IMG/VR virus record: IMGVR_UViG_2541047807_000001
Coordinates: 1 to 39,816 of that record
Direction: 5' to 3' (one strand)
DNA length: 39,816 nt
From: a virus
Lineage: Duplodnaviria; Heunggongvirae; Uroviricota; Caudoviricetes
In this document: positions 2,406-39,816 of the stretch, piece after piece
Position numbering within the stretch: the first letter of the stretch is position 1
How the letters are laid out: every line of letters begins with the position of its first letter
Made by a program: the position numbers and the translations under genes
Notes under the pieces: generated by a model
The model's input: only the letters and a program-made list of their open reading frames with translations
What the model was told of the DNA's origin: nothing
The model's database searches: none

Positions 2406-2608
2406 AACCAACACTCCTCTCATTGCTGCGAGGTGGAAAACACAGCATCCGAGATATGGCAAAGATTCTTGGTATCTCAAGATCGAAGGTTTCTTGGTTC
2501 ATCGCTGAGCTTGAACGTCGCAAATGGGTAGAGGTAACCAGGAGCGCAATATATTTCCACGATGGAACCAGATCCAACAAGCAGAACGAATACAAGGTTA
2601 AGTTATGA
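2402..2608 (+). CDS. Small HTH DNA-binding protein
   Basis: HTH-like segment IRDMAKILGISRSKVSWFIAELERRKW; start overlaps the stop of the upstream gene. Confidence 0.5.
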   Translation: MKPTLLSLLRGGKHSIRDMAKILGISRSKVSWFIAELERRKWVEVTRSAIYFHDGTRSNKQNEYKVKL

Positions 2609-3426
2609 ATACTGGCATCTATTTCGACATCAGCAATGAGGACTACCACGCCGGTGACGGCGTGAGTAAGTCGCAACTAGACATGGTTGCCAAGAATCCG
2701 GCGCTTCTTAAATGGGTTCAGGCAGCACCAGAAGACGAAGAGAAAAAGTCTGCACTGGATATGGGAACCGCATTGCACTGTCTGCTTCTGGAGCCTGGAG
2801 AATTCAACAAACGCTTCATTGTTTCACCGAAATTCGATCGTCGGACGAAACAAGGTAAAGCTGACGAAGAAGCATTTCTTCGTGATGTAGCGGATATGGG
2901 GATTACGGTACTTGATGCCGAGCAGTGGCGGAAACTGGAGCTGATGCGTGATAGCGCAATGGCTCACCCGGCGGCACGCTGGATGCTGGAAGCACCTGGT
3001 TACTGCGAAGCATCAATGTACTGGAATGATGAAGAGACTGGTGAGTTGTGCCGCATTCGTCCAGACAAATGGCTGAACGAGCACAACGTGATCGTCGACG
3101 TGAAAAAGGTTGCAGATATGGACCGTTTTGCACGCCACATCGAGGAATTCCGCTACCACGTGCAGGACGCAATGTACCGCGAAGGAGCGATGAGGGTTAC
3201 TGGTCAGTCGCATGGTTTTTTCTTTCTTGCCGTGAGCGAAAGCATTGATTGTGGTCGGTATCCGGTACGCGTGTTCGAGCTGGATGCGCCGGATGTCGAT
3301 GCCGGGCACGCCCTGTTCCGCCGGGATCTGAATACCTATCACGAATGCCGCATCAATGATGAATGGGGCGGCGTGGAAATTATTAAACGCCCTGACTGGG
3401 CACGTAAACAGGATATGTACGTATGA
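2605..3426 (+). CDS. PD-(D/E)XK exonuclease (YqaJ / lambda Exo-like recombination exonuclease)
   Basis: RPD...VIVDVKK motif (PD-x12-DVK), size about 270 aa, immediately upstream of and coupled to a RecT-like gene. Confidence 0.6.
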   Translation: MNTGIYFDISNEDYHAGDGVSKSQLDMVAKNPALLKWVQAAPEDEEKKSALDMGTALHCLLLEPGEFNKRFIVSPKFDRRTKQGKADEEAFLRDVADMGITVLDAEQWRKLELMRDSAMAHPAARWMLEAPGYCEASMYWNDEETGELCRIRPDKWLNEHNVIVDVKKVADMDRFARHIEEFRYHVQDAMYREGAMRVTGQSHGFFFLAVSESIDCGRYPVRVFELDAPDVDAGHALFRRDLNTYHECRINDEWGGVEIIKRPDWARKQDMYV

Positions 3427-4304
3427 GCAATGATATCGCAATCACATCACAACCAGGCGCAACTGTAGGTACTGCTGCGGCAATCTTCAGCCCGGAGGGC
3501 ATGAATCAACTGGTGCGTTTCGCGGAGTTGATGTCACAAAGCAAAGCGACTGTACCGAAACATCTTGAAGGCAAACCTGCCGATTGTCTGGCGGTGACCA
3601 TGCAGGCGGCACAGTGGGGAATGAACCCTTTCGCCGTGGCGCAGAAAACGCATATGGTAAACGGAACGTTAGGCTACGAAGCACAGTTGGTAAACGCGGT
3701 CGTATCCTCTTCCAGCCTGCTAGCGACACGCCTGAATTATCGCTGGAGCGGTGACTGGTCGAATGTTAACGGCAAAACAGATAAATCACCGAATCTGACG
3801 GTAACTGTGTCAGCAGTTCTTAAAGGAGAAGCAGAACCCCGTGAGCTTACCATCAGTATGGCGCAAGCCGGAGTGCGTAACTCTCCATTGTGGGAACAGG
3901 ATCCGCGCCAGCAGCTTGCCTATCTTTGCACGAAACGATGGGCTCGCCTGCACGCTCCTGATGTACTTCTCGGTGTTTACACCCCTGACGAATTACAGGA
4001 AACGGCACCGCGCGTTGAGCGAGACATTACTCCGCAAACGACTACTGCTGCGGGAATGAACAGTCTGATCAACGCTAAACCAGTGAAAAAGCCTGATGAG
4101 CAAACGCGTAAAGCGGATAGCCGTGATCCAGAAGAAATGCTGATGGCCTTTACCAGCGCAGCGATGAATTACAGCACTGTCTCCGAACTGGATAAGGCTT
4201 ACAAATACATTGCACAAAAACTTTCAGATGATGACGAACTGCTGGCAAAAGCCACCGACGTTTACAGCGTTCGTCGGGAAGAATTAAACGAAACATCTAT
4301 GTAA
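3423..4304 (+). CDS. RecT-family single-strand annealing protein
   Basis: Conserved RecT-like core (PADCLAVTMQAAQWGMNPF ... NGTLGYEAQLVNAVV); paired with the upstream exonuclease. Confidence 0.7.
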   Translation: MSNDIAITSQPGATVGTAAAIFSPEGMNQLVRFAELMSQSKATVPKHLEGKPADCLAVTMQAAQWGMNPFAVAQKTHMVNGTLGYEAQLVNAVVSSSSLLATRLNYRWSGDWSNVNGKTDKSPNLTVTVSAVLKGEAEPRELTISMAQAGVRNSPLWEQDPRQQLAYLCTKRWARLHAPDVLLGVYTPDELQETAPRVERDITPQTTTAAGMNSLINAKPVKKPDEQTRKADSRDPEEMLMAFTSAAMNYSTVSELDKAYKYIAQKLSDDDELLAKATDVYSVRREELNETSM

Positions 4305-4711: not shown

Positions 4712-5011
4712 GTGAGAAAGTTAAGCCGACTTGAAAAATATCACATGAACAAGGTTTCAATGCGCCGTCCTTCAAAGGTTATCGCCGTTACTCCTGCGGC
4801 GATAGAGTTCGAAAAACGCGCGATTGAAAGAGAGAAAAAAGGGCAGTTCCGCATTGCCGCTCACCTTTGGCTTCAGTGTATGGATGTTGCTTCTGGTGAT
4901 GTTGAACGTGCAAGGATCGCGGTTCGCAGGGACCAATGTATCACAAAAGGTAACGGCCTTCGCCGTGGCGACTATAGCGGCATAGGATGTTGTGGGGTGG
5001 TTTATGACTAA
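4712..5011 (+). CDS. Hypothetical protein (start uncertain)
   Basis: ORF only; GTG at 4712 or ATG at 4745. Confidence 0.3.
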   Translation: MRKLSRLEKYHMNKVSMRRPSKVIAVTPAAIEFEKRAIEREKKGQFRIAAHLWLQCMDVASGDVERARIAVRRDQCITKGNGLRRGDYSGIGCCGVVYD

Positions 5012-5654
5012 GAAATACACACTAATCTATGCAGATTCACCCTGGGTATACCGGGACAAAGCCGCAGATGGTAATCGCGGTGTCGGTTTTAAATATCCGG
5101 TTATGAGTGTGCTGGATATCTGCCGCCTTCCTGTGTGGGATTTGGCCGATGAAAACTGTCTGTTGGCCATATGGTGGGTGCCAACACAACCACTCGAAGC
5201 ACTAAAAGTTGTTGAAGCCTGGGGATTCCGTCTGATGACCATGAAGGGCTTCACGTGGATAAAATGTGGTAGTCGACAACCAGATAAACTGGTTATGGGT
5301 ATGGGACACATGACTCGCGCCAATAGTGAAGATTGCCTGTTTGCGGTAAAGGGAAAACTACCTCCGCGCATTAATGCAGGTATCGTTCAGTCATTTACCG
5401 CACCGCGGCTTGAGCATTCAAGAAAACCAGATGTCGTTCGTGAAAAACTTGTGCAATTGTTAGGCGATGTTTCTCGCATTGAACTGTTCGCCCGCCAGTC
5501 GTCTCATGGCTTCGATGTTTGGGGTAATCAGTGCGAAGACCCGGCAGTGCAACTACACCCTGGATACGCGTTGGATATTGGCGGATTAACAAATGCATTC
5601 AGCAATGCTCCGCTGTCACTAACAGACAACCAGGGGCGGGAGCGTGCTGCATGA
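5004..5654 (+). CDS. Phage Dam-like / MT-A70 family DNA N6-adenine methyltransferase
   Basis: IYADSPW (DPPW-like catalytic motif) near the N-terminus and conserved C-terminal IELFARQSSHGFDVWGNQ. RBS ggggtgg before ATG 5004. Confidence 0.7.
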   Translation: MTKKYTLIYADSPWVYRDKAADGNRGVGFKYPVMSVLDICRLPVWDLADENCLLAIWWVPTQPLEALKVVEAWGFRLMTMKGFTWIKCGSRQPDKLVMGMGHMTRANSEDCLFAVKGKLPPRINAGIVQSFTAPRLEHSRKPDVVREKLVQLLGDVSRIELFARQSSHGFDVWGNQCEDPAVQLHPGYALDIGGLTNAFSNAPLSLTDNQGRERAA

Positions 5655-5848: not shown

Positions 5849-7099
5849 TTATTCCCCCGCCATCCACTTCTCAAACTTCGACGGGGAGAACGGAATCAGA
5901 TCCGTATGCTCCCCGTTAATCCAGGAATCAATCATATCGGCCCACTGCTGCAACATGTAGGCGCGCTGTCTGGCGTATTCCGCTTTGTTATATACGGCGC
6001 GCACACCTTTCTGCTCATGTGCCAGAGCCTTTTCAATCCAGTCTGAAGGATAACCAGCCTCATGCAACAACGTACTGGCTGTACGGCGCATATCGTGTAC
6101 GGTGAAGCCCTGAATATGCTCACCATCTTCATTTATTATTTTCACCGTTCTGTCGATCAGAGAGTTCAGCGCGGCATTAGATAATGGCTTCCGGAAATTG
6201 TAACGACCAGGAACCAGATATTCACTTCCACCAGCGCACATCTGCAACCCAACCAATATATCCTGTGCCTGTTTAGGCAGGTAAATAACGTGCGCCCGGC
6301 TTCCCTTCATGCGGTCTGAAGGAATTGTCCATGTCCATTTTTTAAAATCTATTTCATCCCACGTTGCATTGGTGAATTCGCCTTTACGAACCATAGTGAT
6401 AAGCACCAGCTTTAAAGCCATTTTCATAGTGCCCATAGCACCAATGGCATCCAGCGTGCGGAAGAACAGGCCAATTTCTTCTGGTGTCAGTGTTCGCTCT
6501 CGTGGTTTAAATATGGCGATAGACGAAGGTTTAATGTCAGCCGCAGGATTAAACAAACCATGACCACGGTCATTGGCGTGACGGTATACGCTGCTGATGA
6601 TCTCCCTGGCCTGTACTGCTGTTGCCCGACCACCGCGTTCGACAATCCGGTCACACAAATCACGAACCATCGATGTGGTAATTTCAGCCATCATTTTGTT
6701 GCCAAGAACCGGAAGTATGTCACGGTCGATCACCGCCTGCTTCATTGCGCGGGTACTGTCAGCCAGGATGACGTGTTTCATATAACTGTCGGTATGTACC
6801 GCAAACGTCTCGGCACCACGAATCTTTTTGATACCGTCACGTTTAGCCGCAGCCGGCGACTGGCCTGCTTTAAGCAGCTTCTTTGCAGCAATCAGTTCTT
6901 CTCGCGCTTCTGCCAGGCTGATACCGTCACGCCCATACTGCCCGATTACCAGTGTTTCGCGGCGACCGTTGATACGGTAGTCATAGCGAAACGAGACCGT
7001 GCCTGACGTAAGCACAGCTACATACAGCCCGTCACGATCGGAGACCTTGTACAGTTTGTCCTGCGGCTTGAGGTTTTTTAATTTTGTATCGGTAAGCAC
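5849..7099 (-). CDS. Tyrosine recombinase, phage integrase (P4-type with N-terminal arm-binding domain)
   Basis: 416 aa. N-terminal LTDTKLKNLKPQDKLYKVSDRDGLYVAV (arm-binding type) and C-terminal catalytic region with HDMRRTASTLL and a conserved Tyr. Confidence 0.85.
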   Translation of the reverse strand: MLTDTKLKNLKPQDKLYKVSDRDGLYVAVLTSGTVSFRYDYRINGRRETLVIGQYGRDGISLAEAREELIAAKKLLKAGQSPAAAKRDGIKKIRGAETFAVHTDSYMKHVILADSTRAMKQAVIDRDILPVLGNKMMAEITTSMVRDLCDRIVERGGRATAVQAREIISSVYRHANDRGHGLFNPAADIKPSSIAIFKPRERTLTPEEIGLFFRTLDAIGAMGTMKMALKLVLITMVRKGEFTNATWDEIDFKKWTWTIPSDRMKGSRAHVIYLPKQAQDILVGLQMCAGGSEYLVPGRYNFRKPLSNAALNSLIDRTVKIINEDGEHIQGFTVHDMRRTASTLLHEAGYPSDWIEKALAHEQKGVRAVYNKAEYARQRAYMLQQWADMIDSWINGEHTDLIPFSPSKFEKWMAGE

Positions 7100-32127: not shown

Positions 32128-33603
32128 TTAAGCATAGGGATCGTAATCTGTGATGGCCTTGCCTTGCTGGTTCTGCTGCCCGGGAATTCGCAGACGCTTC
32201 GACACAGGGAACGCAAACGTCAGCAGTAGCGCATCGCCTTTACCCGGCGAACGCCCAAGCCGCTCCTTGATATCTTCCTTCGGTTCGATAACGATTTTAC
32301 CGTCCACGCGAACTTTGTACTCTGCCGCCGACAGGTCGTCTGCTGTTTCCTGGTCATCCAGCATGCCGCCCAGCCTCAGCCATGTCTTGCATGAATTGAA
32401 CATCTCCCCACGCTTGTTAAGCATCTGCGGGTCAGTAGACGCGCCACCGAACGGAACAAGTTGCCATGTACGACCCCAGCCATCACCGATTGACTTCAGA
32501 CCAGTTCCGTAACCGAAGTCGATGAACACTGCGTCAGCCTGGTACTGGTCTTCAAAGTCAGCGATACGCTTCGCCATAATCAGATCGTCGGTAGTCTTGT
32601 TGCCAGTCCACAGCACCTTACTGTGTAGCCCCTGCCGTAGGTATATCACCGCGTCATCAACGCCTGAATATGCCGGGTCAACACCGATTATCACCGGAGC
32701 ATGCGCCACCTGCGCAGCGGTTACCACCCGTTTCATTGCCTCATCAGTAAGACCGGTAGGGATAAACTGCAATTCAGATGCATCAGGGAATATGCCGCGC
32801 ACACGGATTTTAACGAAGTCGCTGTCTTCCCCGTAGTCATCAACCCATTTCTGCAACTGCTGTTTGTTAGTGCCTTCCACCGTCCGGCTGTCAATCTGCG
32901 CAGTTTTCCAGCGGTGTTTATATTTGCGGAAACATTCGCGGAAACGCCCGGTGTTACGTGTAGGGTTTCCGAACGCCACCCAGATAATCTCAGTGTCTTC
33001 GTCCGTAAGCGCACCCTCAGCAACTTCCCACACCAGATCCGCAATGTTCGACGCTTCATCGAATACCACGATGATGCGTTTGCGCTCGTTGTGTAGTCCG
33101 GCAAATGCCTCAGTGTTGTGCTCAGACCAGGGGATTGCGTCAGCTCGCCAACGCTTGTCGTGCCCAGGGTCATTGCTGTACATCGCGGTAGCGGTACAGG
33201 TAAACCAGTCTTTCGTGATAGCAAGGTTCGACCACTTGATAATTTCCGGCCAGGTCTTCGTTCGTAGCTGGTTGTCGGTGTTGGCAGTCACCACGACCTT
33301 ACAATCCTCGCAAGTGGACATGCCCCAGTTGATCAACATTGAGATGAATGCTGATTTACCAATACCGTGACCCGAAGCACGTGCCAGCATAAGCGGCTGA
33401 TAGCGCGTCTCGGGATTCTGCAGGTGATCACGTATCTCTCGGAACGCATCAGCCTGCCACTGACGTGGGCCGGTAGCATGTGCCAGTTCAGTCCCCTCTT
33501 CCCCCCACGGGAACGCATAGAGGGAATAGCCAAGCGGATCGTGAGTGAACCCTGCAATATCCTCGATCAATTGCTCTTCAGGAGATAACGCTGTATCTGT
33601 CAC
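32128..33603 (-). CDS. Terminase large subunit
   Basis: 491 aa. Walker A-like GHGIGKS near the N-terminus with VVFDEASNI (Walker B-like), and a C-terminal nuclease-like region. Follows the small terminase with overlapping start. Confidence 0.85.
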   Translation of the reverse strand: MTDTALSPEEQLIEDIAGFTHDPLGYSLYAFPWGEEGTELAHATGPRQWQADAFREIRDHLQNPETRYQPLMLARASGHGIGKSAFISMLINWGMSTCEDCKVVVTANTDNQLRTKTWPEIIKWSNLAITKDWFTCTATAMYSNDPGHDKRWRADAIPWSEHNTEAFAGLHNERKRIIVVFDEASNIADLVWEVAEGALTDEDTEIIWVAFGNPTRNTGRFRECFRKYKHRWKTAQIDSRTVEGTNKQQLQKWVDDYGEDSDFVKIRVRGIFPDASELQFIPTGLTDEAMKRVVTAAQVAHAPVIIGVDPAYSGVDDAVIYLRQGLHSKVLWTGNKTTDDLIMAKRIADFEDQYQADAVFIDFGYGTGLKSIGDGWGRTWQLVPFGGASTDPQMLNKRGEMFNSCKTWLRLGGMLDDQETADDLSAAEYKVRVDGKIVIEPKEDIKERLGRSPGKGDALLLTFAFPVSKRLRIPGQQNQQGKAITDYDPYA

Positions 33604-34196
33604 TGATTGCCATCCTGACGTTCTTTCAGTCTCTTCCTGGCTGCCGCTATGCGATCAGCAATTGTCACATTCACATTAACATCCAGGCGTTCTTTGAATG
33701 CATTGACATCGACGTGCTTACCAATCAGCTCAAGGTTCTTCACCTTGTCAGGCCATTTAATTTTTTTGAGGATTGTCTCTATCGAATCCTCGTTCATGTT
33801 CATGATGGTCGATGACAGATCAAAGCCGCTAAGCGTAGTGCGCCAGATTTTCGGCCACTCGCGGATTGGCTTAAGGCTCCCATCGTCGTTGAGGATGTCG
33901 ATCACGTCCATCTGGTCGATCTCCACCAGGCGCATGAGAACGTAATCAGCACTGACGCGCATTCGTTTGTTGCGCTCCTCCATCAACTCGGCAATCCGTT
34001 TTTGAATGCGTTCATCGCGCATCATGACACTGGCTTTAACTGCCGCTGTATTTGGGGAGAATCCTGCATTAATCGCTGCCTGAGTCTGGTTTTCAGGCGT
34101 TTTGATGTATGACTGGCAATAAGCCTCCTGCATTGCTGTTAGTGGCTTAAATTGCGTTGATTTGCGTTTATAGGTTTTAGGTTCAGCAGGCATCAT
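33600..34196 (-). CDS. Terminase small subunit
   Basis: MPAEPKTYKRKSTQFKPLTAMQEAYCQSYIKTPENQTQAAINAGFSPNTAAVKAS is a small-terminase N-terminal pattern. Start ATG at 34196 or 34193; the longer ORF-track start includes 5' UTR repeats. Confidence 0.65.
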   Translation of the reverse strand: MMPAEPKTYKRKSTQFKPLTAMQEAYCQSYIKTPENQTQAAINAGFSPNTAAVKASVMMRDERIQKRIAELMEERNKRMRVSADYVLMRLVEIDQMDVIDILNDDGSLKPIREWPKIWRTTLSGFDLSSTIMNMNEDSIETILKKIKWPDKVKNLELIGKHVDVNAFKERLDVNVNVTIADRIAAARKRLKERQDGNQ

Positions 34197-34313
34197 AACC
34201 ACCGTGGTAATAGTTACCGTTGTGGTAATAGTACCATGCAAAATAAAGCCGCCATAGTTGGCGGCAGTATTCAAAACCATCAAATTCATCATGCATAATC
34301 TACTCGTGACATG

Positions 34314-34655
34314 TCACACTATTAATTTCGTTTCATGCCAGCCTTTAGTCACCCAGCATTGCGAGTCACCATTACACGGGCATGAATTAACGGGAACTCT
34401 CTCGCCGCACTTACCGCAACATTTTCTGCTGATCGATTTTATACGCCCGCGCACGCGTGCATCATCCTGGCGGATCAGTAACGCTATATACTCACCAAAT
34501 TCGTAAGGCGCACGCCCGGGGCGACGCGTGGCACAGTTACGCTCCAGCATTTCAATTTCCTGAGCATCAAGCACAATTTCCAGCTTACGCACACCAGATG
34601 CAGCTTGTCTGGCTCTCTGAGCGGCTTTGCGCTCTGCTGCTGATTTAGCCATCAA
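34314..34655 (-). CDS. Hypothetical protein with Cys-rich C-terminus
   Basis: 113 aa ending in CCGKCGERVPVNSCPCNGDSQC; last gene before the late operon. Confidence 0.45.
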   Translation of the reverse strand: MMAKSAAERKAAQRARQAASGVRKLEIVLDAQEIEMLERNCATRRPGRAPYEFGEYIALLIRQDDARVRGRIKSISRKCCGKCGERVPVNSCPCNGDSQCWVTKGWHETKLIV

Positions 34656-34926
34656 TATTCACCTTTATCGCGAATACCTTTACCGGTTTATCGCCGAAGT
34701 GCGGATGTGTGATTGTCTTGATTTCATATCCGTCATACGGAACATCAATTCTACGGCTGGAATCGTCGCGCTTCGGATATCCCTTTGTGATAATCAGGCG
34801 GTCATACTCCCGGAACATAATTCGCTTATTCCAGTAGTCATTACACAGGCGATACTCTTCCGTTTTCTCTCCGCGAATCATGGCATCGAAGTATTCACCT
34901 TTGACGGCAAGTTGCAGGTTAGCCAC
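34645..34926 (-). CDS. ASCH-domain-like protein
   Basis: N-terminal GEKTEEYR matches the ASCH GxKxxExR signature; 93 aa. Confidence 0.45.
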   Translation of the reverse strand: MANLQLAVKGEYFDAMIRGEKTEEYRLCNDYWNKRIMFREYDRLIITKGYPKRDDSSRRIDVPYDGYEIKTITHPHFGDKPVKVFAIKVNIDG

Positions 34927-35512
34927 GGTTAACCTCCTGCGGCGGTTCTGGTAGCGGCATCCAGTGGGTTACCTCTTTGAGATACAGGTCTTCGCCACCA
35001 CCGTCATCCCAAGTGGGATTGCCATCATTAAACCAGTCGCCATATACGCCGACCTGAGTGTTGGGGATGTTTGGTGGGTAGTTGTTTTTAAAGTCAGCCG
35101 CTAACACATAGCATTGTCGCTCTCCCATTTCTGGCATTAGCTCACTACAGCTTATCCAACCATCCGGAGTTACCGGAGAGTTGCCATTTATATCGAAGTT
35201 TGGTTCTGCGTCCTGAACCAGGAGGATGTAACCATTCTTGGCAGTATCAAGTTCTAACGCCTCGGTGACGGTACCGAAATAGCGATTACCTAAATCCGCA
35301 TCACAAGTGCTTACATCAATGGAAACCTCCATGCCTTCGATTAATTCTGGCAAGTTGTAAGTTTGGCTTACAGGCTCTGCTTCCAGCGATACCAGTGCAA
35401 TTCGTGCCAGTTCTTCCGCTTCTTCTGCTGGCAGTACAACGTTGCTATCAGGTCCGTATGTTTCGCGCCACTGCTTGATTGTCAGCAGTCGCTCTTTGGT
35501 AATAGTGATCAT
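34919..35512 (-). CDS. DUF551-like early protein; N-terminal module shared with the gene at 36026..36439
   Basis: First ~45 aa (MITITKERLLTIKQWRETYGPDSNVVLPAEEAEELARIAL) nearly identical to the paralogue; C-terminal PDGWISCSELMPE segment. Confidence 0.5.
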   Translation of the reverse strand: MITITKERLLTIKQWRETYGPDSNVVLPAEEAEELARIALVSLEAEPVSQTYNLPELIEGMEVSIDVSTCDADLGNRYFGTVTEALELDTAKNGYILLVQDAEPNFDINGNSPVTPDGWISCSELMPEMGERQCYVLAADFKNNYPPNIPNTQVGVYGDWFNDGNPTWDDGGGEDLYLKEVTHWMPLPEPPQEVNRG

Positions 35513-36024
35513 GCCGCGTTTCCTTCTTTCTTATTAACAATTACACCGTCATATATTTCATTAAGGTGCCCTCTCAACTCCATGCGCCTTAATGCAGATA
35601 ACATGTAATCGCATTCAACCTGCTTATTCCCAATAAAAGGTTTATCTTCAGGGTTACCCCAACAGCAATTACCCTTGGGCCACCCATGTACTTTCCGTAC
35701 TCTTCCGTTAACAACGTGAAGTAATCCCCAGCCAGGTGGTAAATCCTCAATTGAAATAATTCCCGGCTCACTAATAAAGAATCGCCAGTCGCCCATTCCA
35801 AGAGACGGATTTTTACGAAAACGCTTTTTTCTATCTGCCAACAAGTCAGCACGAGAACACTTCGCCTCTATCAGGCATGATGCTGAATTTCTGAATCCCA
35901 TAGCATCTGGCTGTTCTCCGGTACTGGTTACAGCAACAAAGCGGTCATGAAAGCAAACCTTGAACCCGTTGCGCTTAAGGAACTTGTACGCAATCTGACA
36001 GAGTTCGTGGTGTGTTAACGCCAT
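35509..36024 (-). CDS. Putative PD-(D/E)XK-fold nuclease-like protein
   Basis: GEQPDAMGF...CLIEAKCS fits a PD-x(n)-E-x-K arrangement. Strong RBS AAGGAG before ATG 36024. Confidence 0.4.
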   Translation of the reverse strand: MALTHHELCQIAYKFLKRNGFKVCFHDRFVAVTSTGEQPDAMGFRNSASCLIEAKCSRADLLADRKKRFRKNPSLGMGDWRFFISEPGIISIEDLPPGWGLLHVVNGRVRKVHGWPKGNCCWGNPEDKPFIGNKQVECDYMLSALRRMELRGHLNEIYDGVIVNKKEGNAA

Positions 36025-36025
36025 A

Positions 36026-36439
36026 TCACTCTCCTTTACCCTGAAGCATGGCGGCGCGGCAGGCGTTCCATATTTCGGCAGCAATATCGCGCTCGCTATC
36101 GGTTAATTTGTACGTTGAAACATAGCCAGAGAGCATTTCTACGTTTTCCGGAGTTGCTTCTTCAGGCACTACCGGTGCTGGAGGGGCGGCGTAAATGCCC
36201 TCTATCACTAAATGTTTGCGCTCAAAATCATCTGGCTCTCGATGATATACGTAACTCCAATCACCAAGGTTATCATTGCGCCTGCAACGGAAACCTATCG
36301 GCTCGACTTCCAGCGCTGCCAGAGCAATCCGCGCCAGTTCTTCCGCTTCTTCTGCTGGCAGTACAACGTTGCTACCAGGTCCGTATGTTTCGCGCCACTG
36401 CTTGATTGTCAGCAGTCGTTCTCTGGTAATAGTTGTCAT
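36026..36439 (-). CDS. Hypothetical early protein; N-terminal module shared with the gene at 34919..35512
   Basis: MTTITRERLLTIKQWRETYGPGSNVVLPAEEAEELARIALAAL, then a divergent C-terminus. Confidence 0.5.
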   Translation of the reverse strand: MTTITRERLLTIKQWRETYGPGSNVVLPAEEAEELARIALAALEVEPIGFRCRRNDNLGDWSYVYHREPDDFERKHLVIEGIYAAPPAPVVPEEATPENVEMLSGYVSTYKLTDSERDIAAEIWNACRAAMLQGKGE

Positions 36440-36449
36440 TTGTTATGCC

Positions 36450-36647
36450 TCAATACACAAAATCTGTTTTAAATTCATGGTTACATTCTGGACAGCATGT
36501 TTCGTAACCTTTTATTTCTTCACATGCCTGTTTAGCTCCAGAAAACTCCCAGAAATCTGGATCACAAAGCAGATCGAAATTGTGACCACATTTGGGACAT
36601 TCGGTATCAAGTGACAGACTCCAGTAGGCAGTGATGTTTTTATCCAT
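36450..36647 (-). CDS. Small zinc-ribbon protein
   Basis: CPKCGH ... CCPECNH pairs of Cys motifs. Same 17-nt translation initiation region as the nuclease-like gene. Confidence 0.45.
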   Translation of the reverse strand: MDKNITAYWSLSLDTECPKCGHNFDLLCDPDFWEFSGAKQACEEIKGYETCCPECNHEFKTDFVY

Positions 36648-36648
36648 A

Positions 36649-37251
36649 TCACTCTCCTTTGATGCGAATGCCAGCGGCGCGGATAGATTTCCATTGTTCC
36701 CACATTCGGTTGAAGTCTGTGCCTGATAAGGTTGCGTTACGGTATCCAGTTTCGGTACGCAATCCTTCAAGCGTCGATTTGGAGATACAAATTGAATGCA
36801 TTACCCATGATTCAAACAAATCACGCTCCCGAGCTTCGCAACTTTGCTTACTCATATATTCGATACGATCAGCCATCGCAGCGCACTCTTCAAAGTTGCT
36901 AAATGCCTTTCGCTCCCATTCAGCGCATTGTTTTCTAAGCTCTGCAATCAGCTTGTCTTTGCCTTCCAGCTCAACTCGTAGCTTCCCAACCGTTAGCGCA
37001 ATATCCTCGTTCTCCTGGTCGCGGCGTTTGATGTATTGCTGGTTTCTTTCCCGTTCATCCAGTAGTGCCAGCACGGTTTCTGGTCCGGTCAGAAATTTGA
37101 AGGCGTTGAGCGCATCAATATCCACACCGTAATCTTTAAGTTCCTGTTCACTTAACAAATCATCATCAGCTGGCAACATTAACAGGAGTTCCATTGCTGG
37201 AATTGCACGTTCCGCCGCCTCACGCAGTGCCTGGTAATTAATTTCGCTCAC
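36649..37251 (-). CDS. Hypothetical early protein
   Basis: GTG start at 37251 with strong SD GGAGG 7 nt upstream, overlapping the stop of the previous gene. Confidence 0.45.
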   Translation of the reverse strand: MSEINYQALREAAERAIPAMELLLMLPADDDLLSEQELKDYGVDIDALNAFKFLTGPETVLALLDERERNQQYIKRRDQENEDIALTVGKLRVELEGKDKLIAELRKQCAEWERKAFSNFEECAAMADRIEYMSKQSCEARERDLFESWVMHSICISKSTLEGLRTETGYRNATLSGTDFNRMWEQWKSIRAAGIRIKGE

Positions 37252-37552
37252 TGGTTGCCTCCTTTGCTGGGCTTTCGAACTTCTGAGTGGTTGTATCAAA
37301 CTCAAACAACTTAACCACGTCATCAAACAGGACATAATCGCCATCAGAATCTTCAGTCATGTCAGCGCCACAATCCTGACCGCACGAGTCACAACCACCC
37401 ATATCAAGCTCGTATCGCTTCAGGTTTGCGATATTTGATAAATTCAGCGCCAGTACAGCCAGGTCATAAACCTCTTCGGCAGTGACATCGCTGTTCAGTC
37501 CCATTTCATGGCGATATATGATTTTTTCTACTTGTTGTTTTGTGATTGTCAT
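37238..37552 (-). CDS. Hypothetical early protein
   Basis: 104-aa ORF, acidic, coupled within the early-right operon. Confidence 0.45.
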   Translation of the reverse strand: MTITKQQVEKIIYRHEMGLNSDVTAEEVYDLAVLALNLSNIANLKRYELDMGGCDSCGQDCGADMTEDSDGDYVLFDDVVKLFEFDTTTQKFESPAKEATSERN

Positions 37553-38061
37553 TTTTGCTCACCTCCCTGTTCTTCCAGAAAAATACGCATAGCCTCAAGC
37601 ATCTCTTCGGTGTCATATGGTGACAACTTGTCACGCAGGATGTGTTCAATGCTGTTAATGAACTTGCGGATTGCTTTGCGTTCAATTTCAGCCAGGAAAG
37701 CATCTGTAGCCAGGGTTTGCGGCATACCTCCGTCTGTTGCGCAGATATACGCATCAGATATTTCATCCTGCTCGCCATTAAACACATAGCAACTCTGTAC
37801 GATAAATTTATTCAGCTCCGCATTCTCCGCCGCCAGCGCCGAAAACTTCTCGTGTGCCAACTTAACAGCCGCATCAGCCTGCTTAATTGACTCAATCGCT
37901 CTCTGGTGGTCTTCGGCCAGCTCATTAGCACGCACCAACTGAACTTCCAGTTGCGCTGCCAAACAGCGAACAAGCACGGATGGTGCGCCTGTCATGTCGT
38001 CAGCTAACGCATGCCCTGATGCCACTAAATCTTTGATCATACCTTCAGCCATACTTTCCAT
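37549..38061 (-). CDS. Hypothetical early protein
   Basis: 170-aa ORF coupled to the downstream gene. Confidence 0.5.
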   Translation of the reverse strand: MESMAEGMIKDLVASGHALADDMTGAPSVLVRCLAAQLEVQLVRANELAEDHQRAIESIKQADAAVKLAHEKFSALAAENAELNKFIVQSCYVFNGEQDEISDAYICATDGGMPQTLATDAFLAEIERKAIRKFINSIEHILRDKLSPYDTEEMLEAMRIFLEEQGGEQK

Positions 38062-38122
38062 CTTTACCCTCGCTTATCCACATAACTTATTGATTACATT
38101 GATAACTAAAAAGATCGTCGAT

Positions 38123-38467
38123 TCAGAACTCTTCGATTTTCCAGCCACCACCTGCTTTCTTTGGCTTAACAGTTACCCCGATGATTCGGAACGGATATTG
38201 ATCTGCGGCGACTTTGGTTTTCACCCTGGCGTCGTCGGTCCAGAAACCTTTCACTTCGTGCAGTTCCATCTCTCCGGTGGCGAGCATCACAGCGAAATCT
38301 GGCGTATAGAACGTGTTATCAGCTAACCGCAGCTTGATACCCTCGAATCGATACCAGGCGATTTCCCCTGCACGTTTACGCAGCTCAAGGTGCTGGCAAT
38401 ACGCAGATTCTGTTTTGTTCATCTGGCCTGTTTTGAGTCGACCAAGAGCCTGTATCTGTTTTCTCAT
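38123..38467 (-). CDS. Small PD-(D/E)XK-like protein (DUF1064-like)
   Basis: YTPDFAVMLATGEMELHEVKG fits PD-x(n)-E-x-K; 114 aa. Confidence 0.4.
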   Translation of the reverse strand: MRKQIQALGRLKTGQMNKTESAYCQHLELRKRAGEIAWYRFEGIKLRLADNTFYTPDFAVMLATGEMELHEVKGFWTDDARVKTKVAADQYPFRIIGVTVKPKKAGGGWKIEEF

Positions 38468-38470
38468 GAT

Positions 38471-38537
38471 TTACCCCTGAGGTAATTAAAAACCACATAA
38501 GACACGAAATCAATAGAGTTTAGAATATTTTATTACC
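38471..38537. promoter_or_regulatory. Operator pair between the P-like gene and the next early gene
   Basis: TTACCcctgaGGTAA (38471-38485) and TTACCcagcaGGTAA (38523-38537). Confidence 0.45.
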
Positions 38538-38584
38538 CAGCAGGTAATTATCAAGACGTAAAAAAATGCGCTATCGCGCTGGTA

Positions 38585-39385
38585 TTACTTGATAAATCCT
38601 GCCGCCTTTCCCCGCCTGTATTCCTCCATCAGCCACTGCGCCGGTGTTATTCCCCCCAAGGTAGCGGCGTTAGGCATACACCCGAAACTTCGCCCTGGTG
38701 GATGGTAAACGTCTCTCCCTGTGTCCGGAGGCGTACTCATGGGTTCTGGCTTTGCCTGTATGCTGATCACCGGATCGGGTATCTGCTGTCCGGAAGCCAC
38801 CTTTTTCGCCCAATCATCAAGCAGCCTGCGCGCATGTTTCTCAACCTCAATCTCGCTAAGCTGGCGCTGATACATTGCACGGCGGGTATCACATACGACC
38901 CAGTACATAACCGGATGCCGCCACGGGAATCTTTCGGGACCACCAGGATATAAACTTTTTTCCTTGCTGTACCGGTGAAACTCCGCCATCACATCGTCAA
39001 TGGTGACGCCAAGAACCATCTTGCTGTCTTTACACCACTTGATAAATTGCCCTGGCGACGGCCAGAACGGAGATTCACTGGCGCGGGCGTGGCGCATACC
39101 AGCAGAAACCTGTTCACGGGTTCGGATCCCCCCTTCGGCAAACGCAGCAATCCACTGCTGTTTTGCAGCAACTTCCTGCTCTGGCGTCTTCAGGTTGGTT
39201 ACCACTGCCGCCGGAAACAGTTGTTTCAGCTGTTTGAAAAGGACATCAACAAGCCTCTCTGCTGACATGTTCACCACATTGTCATTGTTGACGTACTGAT
39301 GCTCATAACCTGACATGCGAGAAAGGGCTTCTCCGTCACGGTTTTGTATCGCGGTAAAAACGTTGTTCACAAGAAATCCTCCCAC
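38585..39385 (-). CDS. Replication protein P-like helicase loader
   Basis: QQWIAAFAEGGIRTREQVSAGMRHARASESPFWPSPGQFIKWCKDSK parallels lambda P (RRQWVLAFRENGITTMEQVNAGMRVARRQNRPFLPSPGQFVAWCRE) as I recall it. Overlaps the O-like stop; start codon uncertain. Confidence 0.7.
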   Translation of the reverse strand: MGGFLVNNVFTAIQNRDGEALSRMSGYEHQYVNNDNVVNMSAERLVDVLFKQLKQLFPAAVVTNLKTPEQEVAAKQQWIAAFAEGGIRTREQVSAGMRHARASESPFWPSPGQFIKWCKDSKMVLGVTIDDVMAEFHRYSKEKSLYPGGPERFPWRHPVMYWVVCDTRRAMYQRQLSEIEVEKHARRLLDDWAKKVASGQQIPDPVISIQAKPEPMSTPPDTGRDVYHPPGRSFGCMPNAATLGGITPAQWLMEEYRRGKAAGFIK

Positions 39386-39816
39386 GCTTCAGGGCTGTTC
39401 CAGTGCGGAACGTTGTTATCAGGTAATGTTGATTGCTTCTGTCTGCTAATCTGCAGCCGCCTTGCCAGCTTCTGCTCCCACTGTGCCTGATGGTATGCCT
39501 TACCCTCAGCCATCCAGTAAATTCTGAACTCTGCAAGTTCCTGTGCCGTTGGCAGACTGTCCAGGTAGATCCCCTGCAATGAGCTTTTCCGAAGAAAGTC
39601 ATCTGATGGCTGCCATTGTTCATGCATGACAAATTTGCCTAATTGCCCTGGCCCACCAGGAGGAACAAAGTTATTCATCACGGCGTTGTTTGCGCCGGGG
39701 TCATGAGGCACAGAATCCCCGGTTTTTGTCCTGCTCTCCCTCTCTTGGTTAAATGACTGGTTATATGACTGGTTCTGGATCCCGTTTTTGGGATCATTCA
39801 ACATCCCGTTTTTGGG
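39367..39816 (-). CDS. Replication initiator O-like, C-terminal part (N-terminal part is 1..461 across the circular junction)
   Basis: In-frame continuation of the iteron-encoded repeats (MLNDPKNG...); C-terminal domain directly upstream of the P-like gene, as in lambdoid O-P pairs. Confidence 0.75.
   Translation of the reverse strand, partial: PKNGMLNDPKNGIQNQSYNQSFNQERESRTKTGDSVPHDPGANNAVMNNFVPPGGPGQLGKFVMHEQWQPSDDFLRKSSLQGIYLDSLPTAQELAEFRIYWMAEGKAYHQAQWEQKLARRLQISRQKQSTLPDNNVPHWNSPEAWEDFL
39722..39816. repeat. Terminal overlap, identical to nt 1-95
   Basis: Exact identity of the last 95 nt with the first 95 nt. Confidence 0.9.

Follow-up and report, generated by a model that had tools for sequence, protein, structure and literature searches.

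Three adjacent minus-strand genes at positions 34645-36024 of a phage sequence, the IMG/VR virus record IMGVR_UViG_2541047807_000001 (Caudoviricetes; the window analysed is positions 1 to 39,816 of that record, 39,816 nucleotides (nt) in all), form a translationally coupled part of the distal early-right (post-replication, nin-like) operon of a temperate podophage of Escherichia coli. The first gene encodes a PD-(D/E)XK nuclease of an uncurated phage family, which is nearest to the MmcB-like proteins and lies outside the model of that family. The last encodes a standalone ASCH protein which, from its sequence motif, can be placed in the K21/E24/R26 (TRIP4/EOLA1-type) clade and not with YqfB. 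Recombination at shared sequence modules shuffles the genes as separate cassettes, and they do not make up a two-component system. The most likely role of the nuclease is that of an accessory structure- or lesion-specific DNA endonuclease in replication and recombination. Taken as a whole, this reading of three co-transcribed, coupled accessory genes and of their roles is held with about even confidence; the folds, motifs, operon layout and independent assortment are established, and the substrates and biological roles are inferred. A first-pass annotation of the same DNA had delimited the interval, and its limits agree to the base with the outer ends of the three genes:

35509-36024, minus strand: PD-(D/E)XK nuclease, 171 amino acids (aa), related to the MmcB-like family
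34919-35512, minus strand: DUF551 protein, 197 aa (Pfam, phrog_60, phrog_3323)
34645-34926, minus strand: standalone ASCH (PUA-like beta-barrel) protein, 93 aa (open reading frame (ORF), ribosome-binding site, AlphaFold2 (AF2), Foldseek, NCBI name)

The PD-(D/E)XK nuclease

The 171-aa protein is basic (isoelectric point (pI) 9.1) and gave no match above threshold in Pfam, NCBIfam or PADLOC. In PHROGs it belongs to phrog_9263 and phrog_631, both of unknown function, and the family is labelled 'hypothetical' in essentially every source, RefSeq included. The gene begins with an ATG at 36024 that is preceded by AGGAG 7 nt upstream; a longer TTG start at 36084 was rejected, given this ribosome-binding site and the fact that homologues begin MALTH. 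A profile search of 1.84 billion representative proteins (cut-off E<=1e-3) gathered at least 3,260 clusters at 50% identity, a family for which there is no Pfam model. Residues D27, E37, D40, E53 and K55 were found to be invariant in 57 close homologues, as were further motifs, and the PD-(D/E)XK motif is present as P39-D40 ... E53-A-K55. In an alignment of 101 diverse members D40 was invariant, and E37, P39, E53, K55, S57, R58, F61, D64, K67 and R70 were conserved in at least 90%. The catalytic core maps as follows:

35860-35907, minus strand: nuclease catalytic core, from D40 (35905-35907) to E53-A-K55 (35860-35868), by conservation and alignment to 3dnx

The AF2 model of the nuclease (predicted local distance difference test (pLDDT) 87.9, predicted template-modelling score (pTM) 0.82) contains the alpha-beta-beta-beta-alpha-beta core. 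Its Foldseek matches in the PDB were weak (E about 0.02) and exclusively PD-(D/E)XK proteins, namely the R2 RLE domain, AF1548, HincII, Hjc, XisH and Bax1. A shallow profile of close homologues reached 3dnx at only E=0.42, while the profile of the 101 diverse sequences matched it at E=1.6e-5, with Hjc chains at E=0.065-0.09. The alignment pairs the D...E-C-K residues and the subsequent S-R-x-D-F-x-x-D helix, the S57-R58-x-D60-F61 motif of the nuclease family being common to MmcB-like proteins. As the sequence of 3dnx is a clear member of Pfam PF06319, 'DNA repair protein MmcB-like' (E=4.7e-34), the closest structural and profile relative of the nuclease is a bona fide representative of that family. 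Weak matches to Pfam Hjc were obtained for 17 of the 101 members and to Pfam MmcB-like for 10 (best E=2.9e-4); the nuclease of the window itself matched neither PF06319, even at E<=10, nor Hjc (PF01870). The core fold, the conservation of D40/E53/K55 and the profile match to 3dnx bear out the first-pass call of a PD-(D/E)XK-like protein, and the protein is therefore assigned to that fold, closest to the MmcB-like family.

In Caulobacter, MmcB is a PD-(D/E)XK endonuclease under SOS control; it confers protection from mitomycin C and cisplatin and has been proposed as a partner of translesion polymerases in crosslink repair (PMC9578287), a role in damage tolerance known for the Caulobacter protein only. 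Compared with MmcB-like proteins (PF06319; 3dnx, SPO1766; Caulobacter MmcB), to which it is 24% identical and below the Pfam threshold, the phage nuclease has a conserved set of GMGDWRF, GWGLL and KPF..NKQAE..SALRR motifs and a C-terminal helical extension. It is also phage-borne, unlike the SOS-regulated chromosomal MmcB. The structural match to the archaeal Hjc resolvases (PF01870) is much weaker than that to the MmcB-like proteins.

It might be supposed that the 171-aa protein is a housekeeping Holliday-junction resolvase or debranching enzyme that the phage needs for resolving its concatemers ahead of packaging, on the model of Hjc, T7 endonuclease I or Rap. The first-pass annotation had regarded a confident assignment of this kind as evidence against a defence role, and the relationship to MmcB, and distantly to Hjc, leans that way, but the match is too distant for confidence. 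In contrast to Hjc, however, close relatives of the phage can dispense with the nuclease gene, which is found together with other resolvase-type genes; an essential resolvase is therefore unlikely, and a housekeeping role in concatemer processing is likewise judged unlikely. The window encodes two other PD-(D/E)XK-type proteins, DUF3799 (2605-3426, plus strand, with a RecT partner) and DUF1064 (38123-38467, minus strand), so that the MmcB-like nuclease is the third enzyme of this fold in the phage. As an accessory endonuclease the 171-aa protein would be an active metal-dependent phosphodiesterase of a large phage-borne family, as its sequence predicts. It would incise branched or lesion-containing DNA arising in phage replication and recombination, and may serve as an accessory to the RecT/DUF3799 and DUF1064 functions.

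The ASCH protein

The octapeptide GEKTEEYR, on which the first-pass annotation had based an ASCH-like fold, forms residues 19-26 of the 93-aa protein (nt 34849-34872, minus strand). Its G19, K21, E24 and R26 are invariant in 44 homologues, giving the pattern G-x-K-x-x-E-x-R. Sequence profiles were less informative: Pfam ASCH (PF04266) remained sub-threshold against the protein (14.3 bits against a cut-off of 21.2, E=0.067, residues 6-28 only), an NCBIfam scan gave nothing, and a PDB profile search with the family returned chance matches only. In PHROGs the protein belongs to phrog_625, of unknown function. Its homologues form 670 clusters at 90% identity (E<=1e-3) and are named 'ASCH domain-containing protein' or 'RNA-binding protein' by NCBI, and likewise in RefSeq E. 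coli genomes; the ASCH identity is thus already in public annotation.

The AF2 model (pLDDT 88.1) consists of strands at residues 2-8, 23-27, 41-48, 59-63, 67-72 and 82-88 and helices at 10-17 and 30-36, and has the PUA-like beta-barrel with a helix after strand 1. When it was compared with the PDB by Foldseek, the first 12 structures were all ASCH proteins, including 3iuw, 2z0t, ZmASCH, PF0470 and YqfB (probability up to 1.00, TM-scores 0.47-0.59), and the PUA-like YTH and EVE domains ranked after them. Since only ASCH structures head the list and the octapeptide is invariant, the fold call is sound, and on this point the first-pass annotation was right.

The catalytic residues of E. coli YqfB are Lys21, Thr24, Arg26 and Glu74 (PMC9599836), and its G19-R-K21-T-I-T24-I-R26 was confirmed on the 1te7 sequence, with the same numbering as in the 93-aa protein. 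The phage protein resembles YqfB (1te7/9kyf) in consisting of a single free-standing ASCH domain of some 100 aa and in having G19, K21 and R26, and the Foldseek TM-score of the two is about 0.55, but the nucleophile Thr24 of this N4-acylcytidine amidohydrolase is Glu24 in the phage protein. An hhalign comparison of the ASCH alignment with YqfB, uninformative at an effective number of sequences (Neff) of 1.5, revealed no profile-level similarity and yielded no alignment for the equivalent of Glu74. A YqfB-type amidohydrolase was rejected: K21 and R26 are present, and position 24 is an invariant Glu.

In the TRIP4-like clade, which includes the human N4-acetylcytidine (ac4C) deacetylase EOLA1, a K21/E24/R26 pocket with an absolutely conserved E24 has been reported (preprint 10.64898/2026.08.01.741249). 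The same three residues were found in the 93-aa protein, numbered as in EOLA1, and like the ASCH domains of the TRIP4/EOLA1 clade it is a standalone ASCH barrel. It differs from them in being shorter at 93 aa and in having no detectable sequence similarity outside the octapeptide. The pocket would most likely take a free or flipped-out modified base, that is, an N-acylated or alkylated cytosine or adenine, and the protein would bind this base and perhaps hydrolyse the N-acyl group as EOLA1 and YqfB do. Its role might then be that of a nucleotide- or RNA-metabolism accessory in lytic growth. In a prophage of enterohaemorrhagic E. coli (EHEC), a gene annotated as an ASCH-domain protein adjoins an N-acetyltransferase gene (PMC8553066), and such a pair would fit an acyl-base-related activity; in this window the ASCH gene is without such an N-acetyltransferase partner.

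Operon structure and independent assortment

All genes from 39804 down to 32128 are carried on the minus strand. The 137-aa gene upstream ends one base ahead of the nuclease ATG, and the nuclease stop codon and the DUF551 ATG overlap (ATGA). The GTG start of the ASCH gene at 34926, with GGAGG 6-7 nt upstream, lies inside the DUF551 gene in an 8-nt overlap, and the start of the regulator gene (34314-34655) overlaps the ASCH gene in turn. With starts and stops that abut or overlap and are served by ribosome-binding sites, the nuclease, DUF551 and ASCH genes are therefore translationally coupled. Counts of promoter- and terminator-like sites in 33500-39816 did not exceed those in shuffled sequence, and no such site was found on the coding strand between the three genes; the suggestive sites in that region are limited to a promoter-like sequence at 38554-38527, upstream of DUF1064, and a hairpin at 34265-34248. 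The absence of separating sites and of any excess over shuffled sequence therefore points to expression from the lytic early-right operon and not to autonomous morons, and the three genes are not moron-type lysogenic-conversion genes. With a lambda-P-like gene at 38585-39385 and the terminase genes at 32128-34292, the early-right position downstream of replication given in the first-pass annotation was also correct. Other features placed in the window are:

1213-1797: helix-turn-helix (HTH) regulator (Pfam)
2605-4304: DUF3799 PDDEXK exonuclease (2605-3426, plus strand) and RecT (Pfam)
4992-5654, plus strand: MT-A70-family methyltransferase (Pfam E=3.2e-20)
5849-7099: integrase (Pfam)
32128-33603, minus strand: TerL
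33600-34292, minus strand: TerS (listed ORF 230 aa)
34248-34265, minus strand: terminator-like GC hairpin GCCGCCAACTATGGCGGC, then a T-run, between the regulator gene (end 34314) and the probable terS start
34314-34655, minus strand: basic regulator-like protein, 113 aa, the last gene of the operon (phrog_536)
35373-35512: direct repeat copy 1, 140 nt, 91% identical to copy 2
36300-36439: direct repeat copy 2, 140 nt, 91% identical to copy 1
36026-36439, minus strand: acidic hypothetical protein, 137 aa (phrog_60, phrog_5117, phrog_3323)
36450-36770, minus strand: small acidic Zn-ribbon protein, 106 aa
37549-38061 and 36649-37344, minus strand: two Ea22-like proteins
37238-37552, minus strand: small acidic protein, 104 aa
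38123-38467, minus strand: DUF1064 protein (phrog_190 'Holliday junction resolvase')
38585-39385, minus strand: lambda-P-like replication protein (Pfam)
39367-39804, minus strand: replication protein, 145 aa, upstream of the P-like gene

Co-occurrence was surveyed in the best 80 viral contigs for the nuclease and the best 80 for the ASCH gene, the latter all being 97-100% identical E. coli phages. None of the 80 nuclease loci has an ASCH homologue within 4 kb of the nuclease, and the nuclease is present in only four of the 80 ASCH loci; on these counts (0/80 and 4/80) a two-gene system of ASCH protein and nuclease was rejected, and the genes were observed to assort independently. A DUF551 gene lies just upstream of the ASCH gene in 48 of the 80 ASCH loci, and the regulator and terminase genes just downstream in 40. 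In Escherichia phage TL-2011b the ASCH slot is filled by a gene of the DUF2591 family, which we take to be equivalent to P22 NinX. A survey of 5426 complete E. coli genomes placed parts of the interval in 3004 of them, at a median of two places each and including Shiga toxin (Stx) phages and P1-like phage-plasmids. The whole arrangement was found in 18 of the 5426, mostly in P1-like plasmids of about 95-100 kb.

The direct repeat suggests how such cassettes move. The 197-aa protein combines an N-terminal shared module with a C-terminal DUF551 domain (Pfam E=6.3e-19, residues 118-192), and the 140-nt repeat encodes this N-terminal module of about 47 aa, which is common to the DUF551 and 137-aa proteins. 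The 104-aa protein at 37238-37552 begins with the module too (phrog_3323), in a third copy that is weaker. As the repeat copies flank the nuclease gene together with the C-terminal part of the 137-aa gene, they offer an obvious route for gain and loss of the cassette, and the repeat probably mediates cassette exchange. The same mosaic neighbourhood and swapping are seen in the nin-region genes of lambdoid phages and the ea-region genes of P22 (EaA/DUF551, Ea22, NinX); these accessory genes are positional classes and not functional families, and most are uncharacterised.

The flanking repeats and the sporadic distribution among near-identical phages would also suit a selfish, free-standing homing-type endonuclease that cuts nuclease-free alleles, and PD-(D/E)XK homing endonucleases do exist. 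This explanation is nevertheless very unlikely, as the family shows 60-97% identity across many genera and appears fixed beside primase in the Ackermannviridae. Moreover, the AF2 model of the 171-aa protein shows no evident domain of its own for DNA recognition, and the repeats are protein-coding modules common to neighbouring genes, typical of lambdoid mosaic joints.

A megablast search with positions 34000-38600 returned mosaic matches of 94-97% identity to Escherichia phages TL-2011b, phiV10, PAS61 and ZX5, the further matches being segments of Stx-converting and P1-like phages; no record covered at least 80% of this query. From the mosaic matches to the four named phages the window is therefore read as an epsilon15/phiV10-like phage, of the Uetakevirus type to which we presume those phages to belong.

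The 113-aa protein that closes the operon matched phrog_536 'transcriptional regulator' (E=8.5e-55) in PHROGs, and it is a candidate late-gene regulator since it stands directly ahead of the terminase genes in 40 of the 80 related loci. It is basic with a Cys cluster at its C-terminus, and its N-terminus weakly resembles a LexA-regulated protein family (NCBIfam NF008671, E=0.052). The hairpin at 34248-34265 is probably the boundary of the early-right and late operons. The probable true start of terS is near 34193, the listed 230-aa ORF being likely over-extended at its 5' end because TerS of TL-2011b is encoded by 594 nt; the hairpin is then intergenic.

Defence and alternative roles

The nuclease N-terminal domain was found across the Ackermannviridae and in Vibrio and Acinetobacter phages, and in the virulent Kuttervirus phage 38 (NC_029042) the homologue directly precedes the DNA primase gene and ends at its start codon. 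In this Salmonella phage the tblastn match to the nuclease (3001-3597) starts some 144 nt ahead of the point annotated as the start of SP38_165, which may have been placed too far downstream. Members of the ASCH family are found in Salmonella phages of the Guernseyvirinae type and in phages of Ralstonia, Erwinia and Klebsiella; in the virulent Deseoctovirus C1 the gene lies between a helicase gene and a primase gene. In other lambdoid contigs the nuclease is located downstream of O/P-type replication genes, with neighbours which, by eye and without a profile search, we take to be NinB-like, NinG/Rap-like and DnaB-type helicase genes. The presence of both families within the replication modules of virulent phages therefore favours a part in lytic DNA or nucleotide metabolism and speaks against prophage defence.

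The phage is temperate, with an integrase at 5849-7099, and accessory regions of prophages often carry defence genes, so that defence or superinfection exclusion expressed from the lysogen might be envisaged. It is nonetheless highly improbable, considering the homologues in obligately virulent phages, the translational coupling within a lytic operon, the lack of an independent promoter or terminator, and the result from PADLOC, in which none of 10 proteins of the region found a match at E<=0.1. The first-pass annotation had correctly recognised an accessory region and the two folds, but the anti-defence or defence function that it proposed has found no supporting evidence in PADLOC, in the operon structure or in the replication modules of virulent phages. 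It had also described a Dam-like methyltransferase in the early-left region; a methyltransferase is indeed encoded there (4992-5654), but of the MT-A70 family and not of the Dam Pfam family.

Counter-defence, in which a host immune system would be disabled by the nuclease, the ASCH protein or both, deserves separate consideration. The nuclease might destroy defence-associated nucleic acid or repair DNA damaged by defence; a base modification to which a modification-dependent system responds might be removed or masked by the ASCH protein. Near-identical phages differ in the presence or absence of genes in this hypervariable accessory stretch, and the occurrence of both families in virulent phages is compatible with an anti-defence role. 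Domains of the ASCH and PUA-like kind read modified bases and turn up repeatedly in restriction-modification and toxin-antitoxin contexts (PMC7641849). On the other hand, no homology to a known anti-defence protein turned up, the literature links neither family to counter-defence, and literature searches on ASCH and DUF551 in connection with anti-defence brought up no functional study of these phage proteins. The copies in virulent phages, furthermore, lie inside replication modules instead of clusters of early anti-defence genes.

As candidates for classical inhibitors or DNA mimics, the acidic neighbours look more likely than the two proteins themselves, which are basic and resemble enzymes. 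The acidic small proteins of the operon are encoded at 34919-35512, 36026-36439, 36450-36770, 37238-37552 and 37549-38061, with a charge of -24 for the DUF551 protein (pI 4.05) and of -9 to -15 for the others. DNA mimics and protein inhibitors typically carry a strong negative charge of this kind, and as anti-defence candidates the DUF551 protein and the other acidic neighbours are at least as plausible as the two basic genes. Counter-defence by the nuclease or the ASCH protein is accordingly considered unlikely. A more specific form of it, in which the nuclease family would process phage DNA lesions as counter-defence by repair, excising adducts or crosslinks inflicted by the host (e.g., by DNA-modifying toxin or defence systems) and so letting replication continue, while the ASCH protein would erase a base mark read by a host sensor, is judged distinctly improbable.

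Accessory roles in lytic DNA and nucleotide metabolism remain the preferred explanation for the nuclease and the ASCH protein, and several observations weigh against it. The nuclease falls below the Pfam and NCBIfam thresholds for MmcB-like, Hjc and every other family, and its identity to 3dnx is 24%. With DUF3799 and DUF1064 already encoded by the phage, there is no obvious need for a third nuclease in recombination or repair. Position 7 in the TRIP4-like clade is reported to be always Ser or Thr (10.64898/2026.08.01.741249), whereas the 93-aa family has an invariant Ala7, the register being inferred from residue numbering alone; given Ala7, the protein may bind its base without hydrolysing it. 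Arms-race genes would account equally well for the sporadic distribution of the genes as cassettes, and literature searches found no biochemically characterised member of either phage family.

For the annotation of E. coli prophages the gain is modest: a very common 'hypothetical' protein becomes an MmcB-related PD-(D/E)XK nuclease, with catalytic residues named for mutation. Placing the ASCH protein in the TRIP4/EOLA1-type clade, and not with YqfB, narrows the substrates worth testing. The ASCH and nuclease genes should not be handled as one system.

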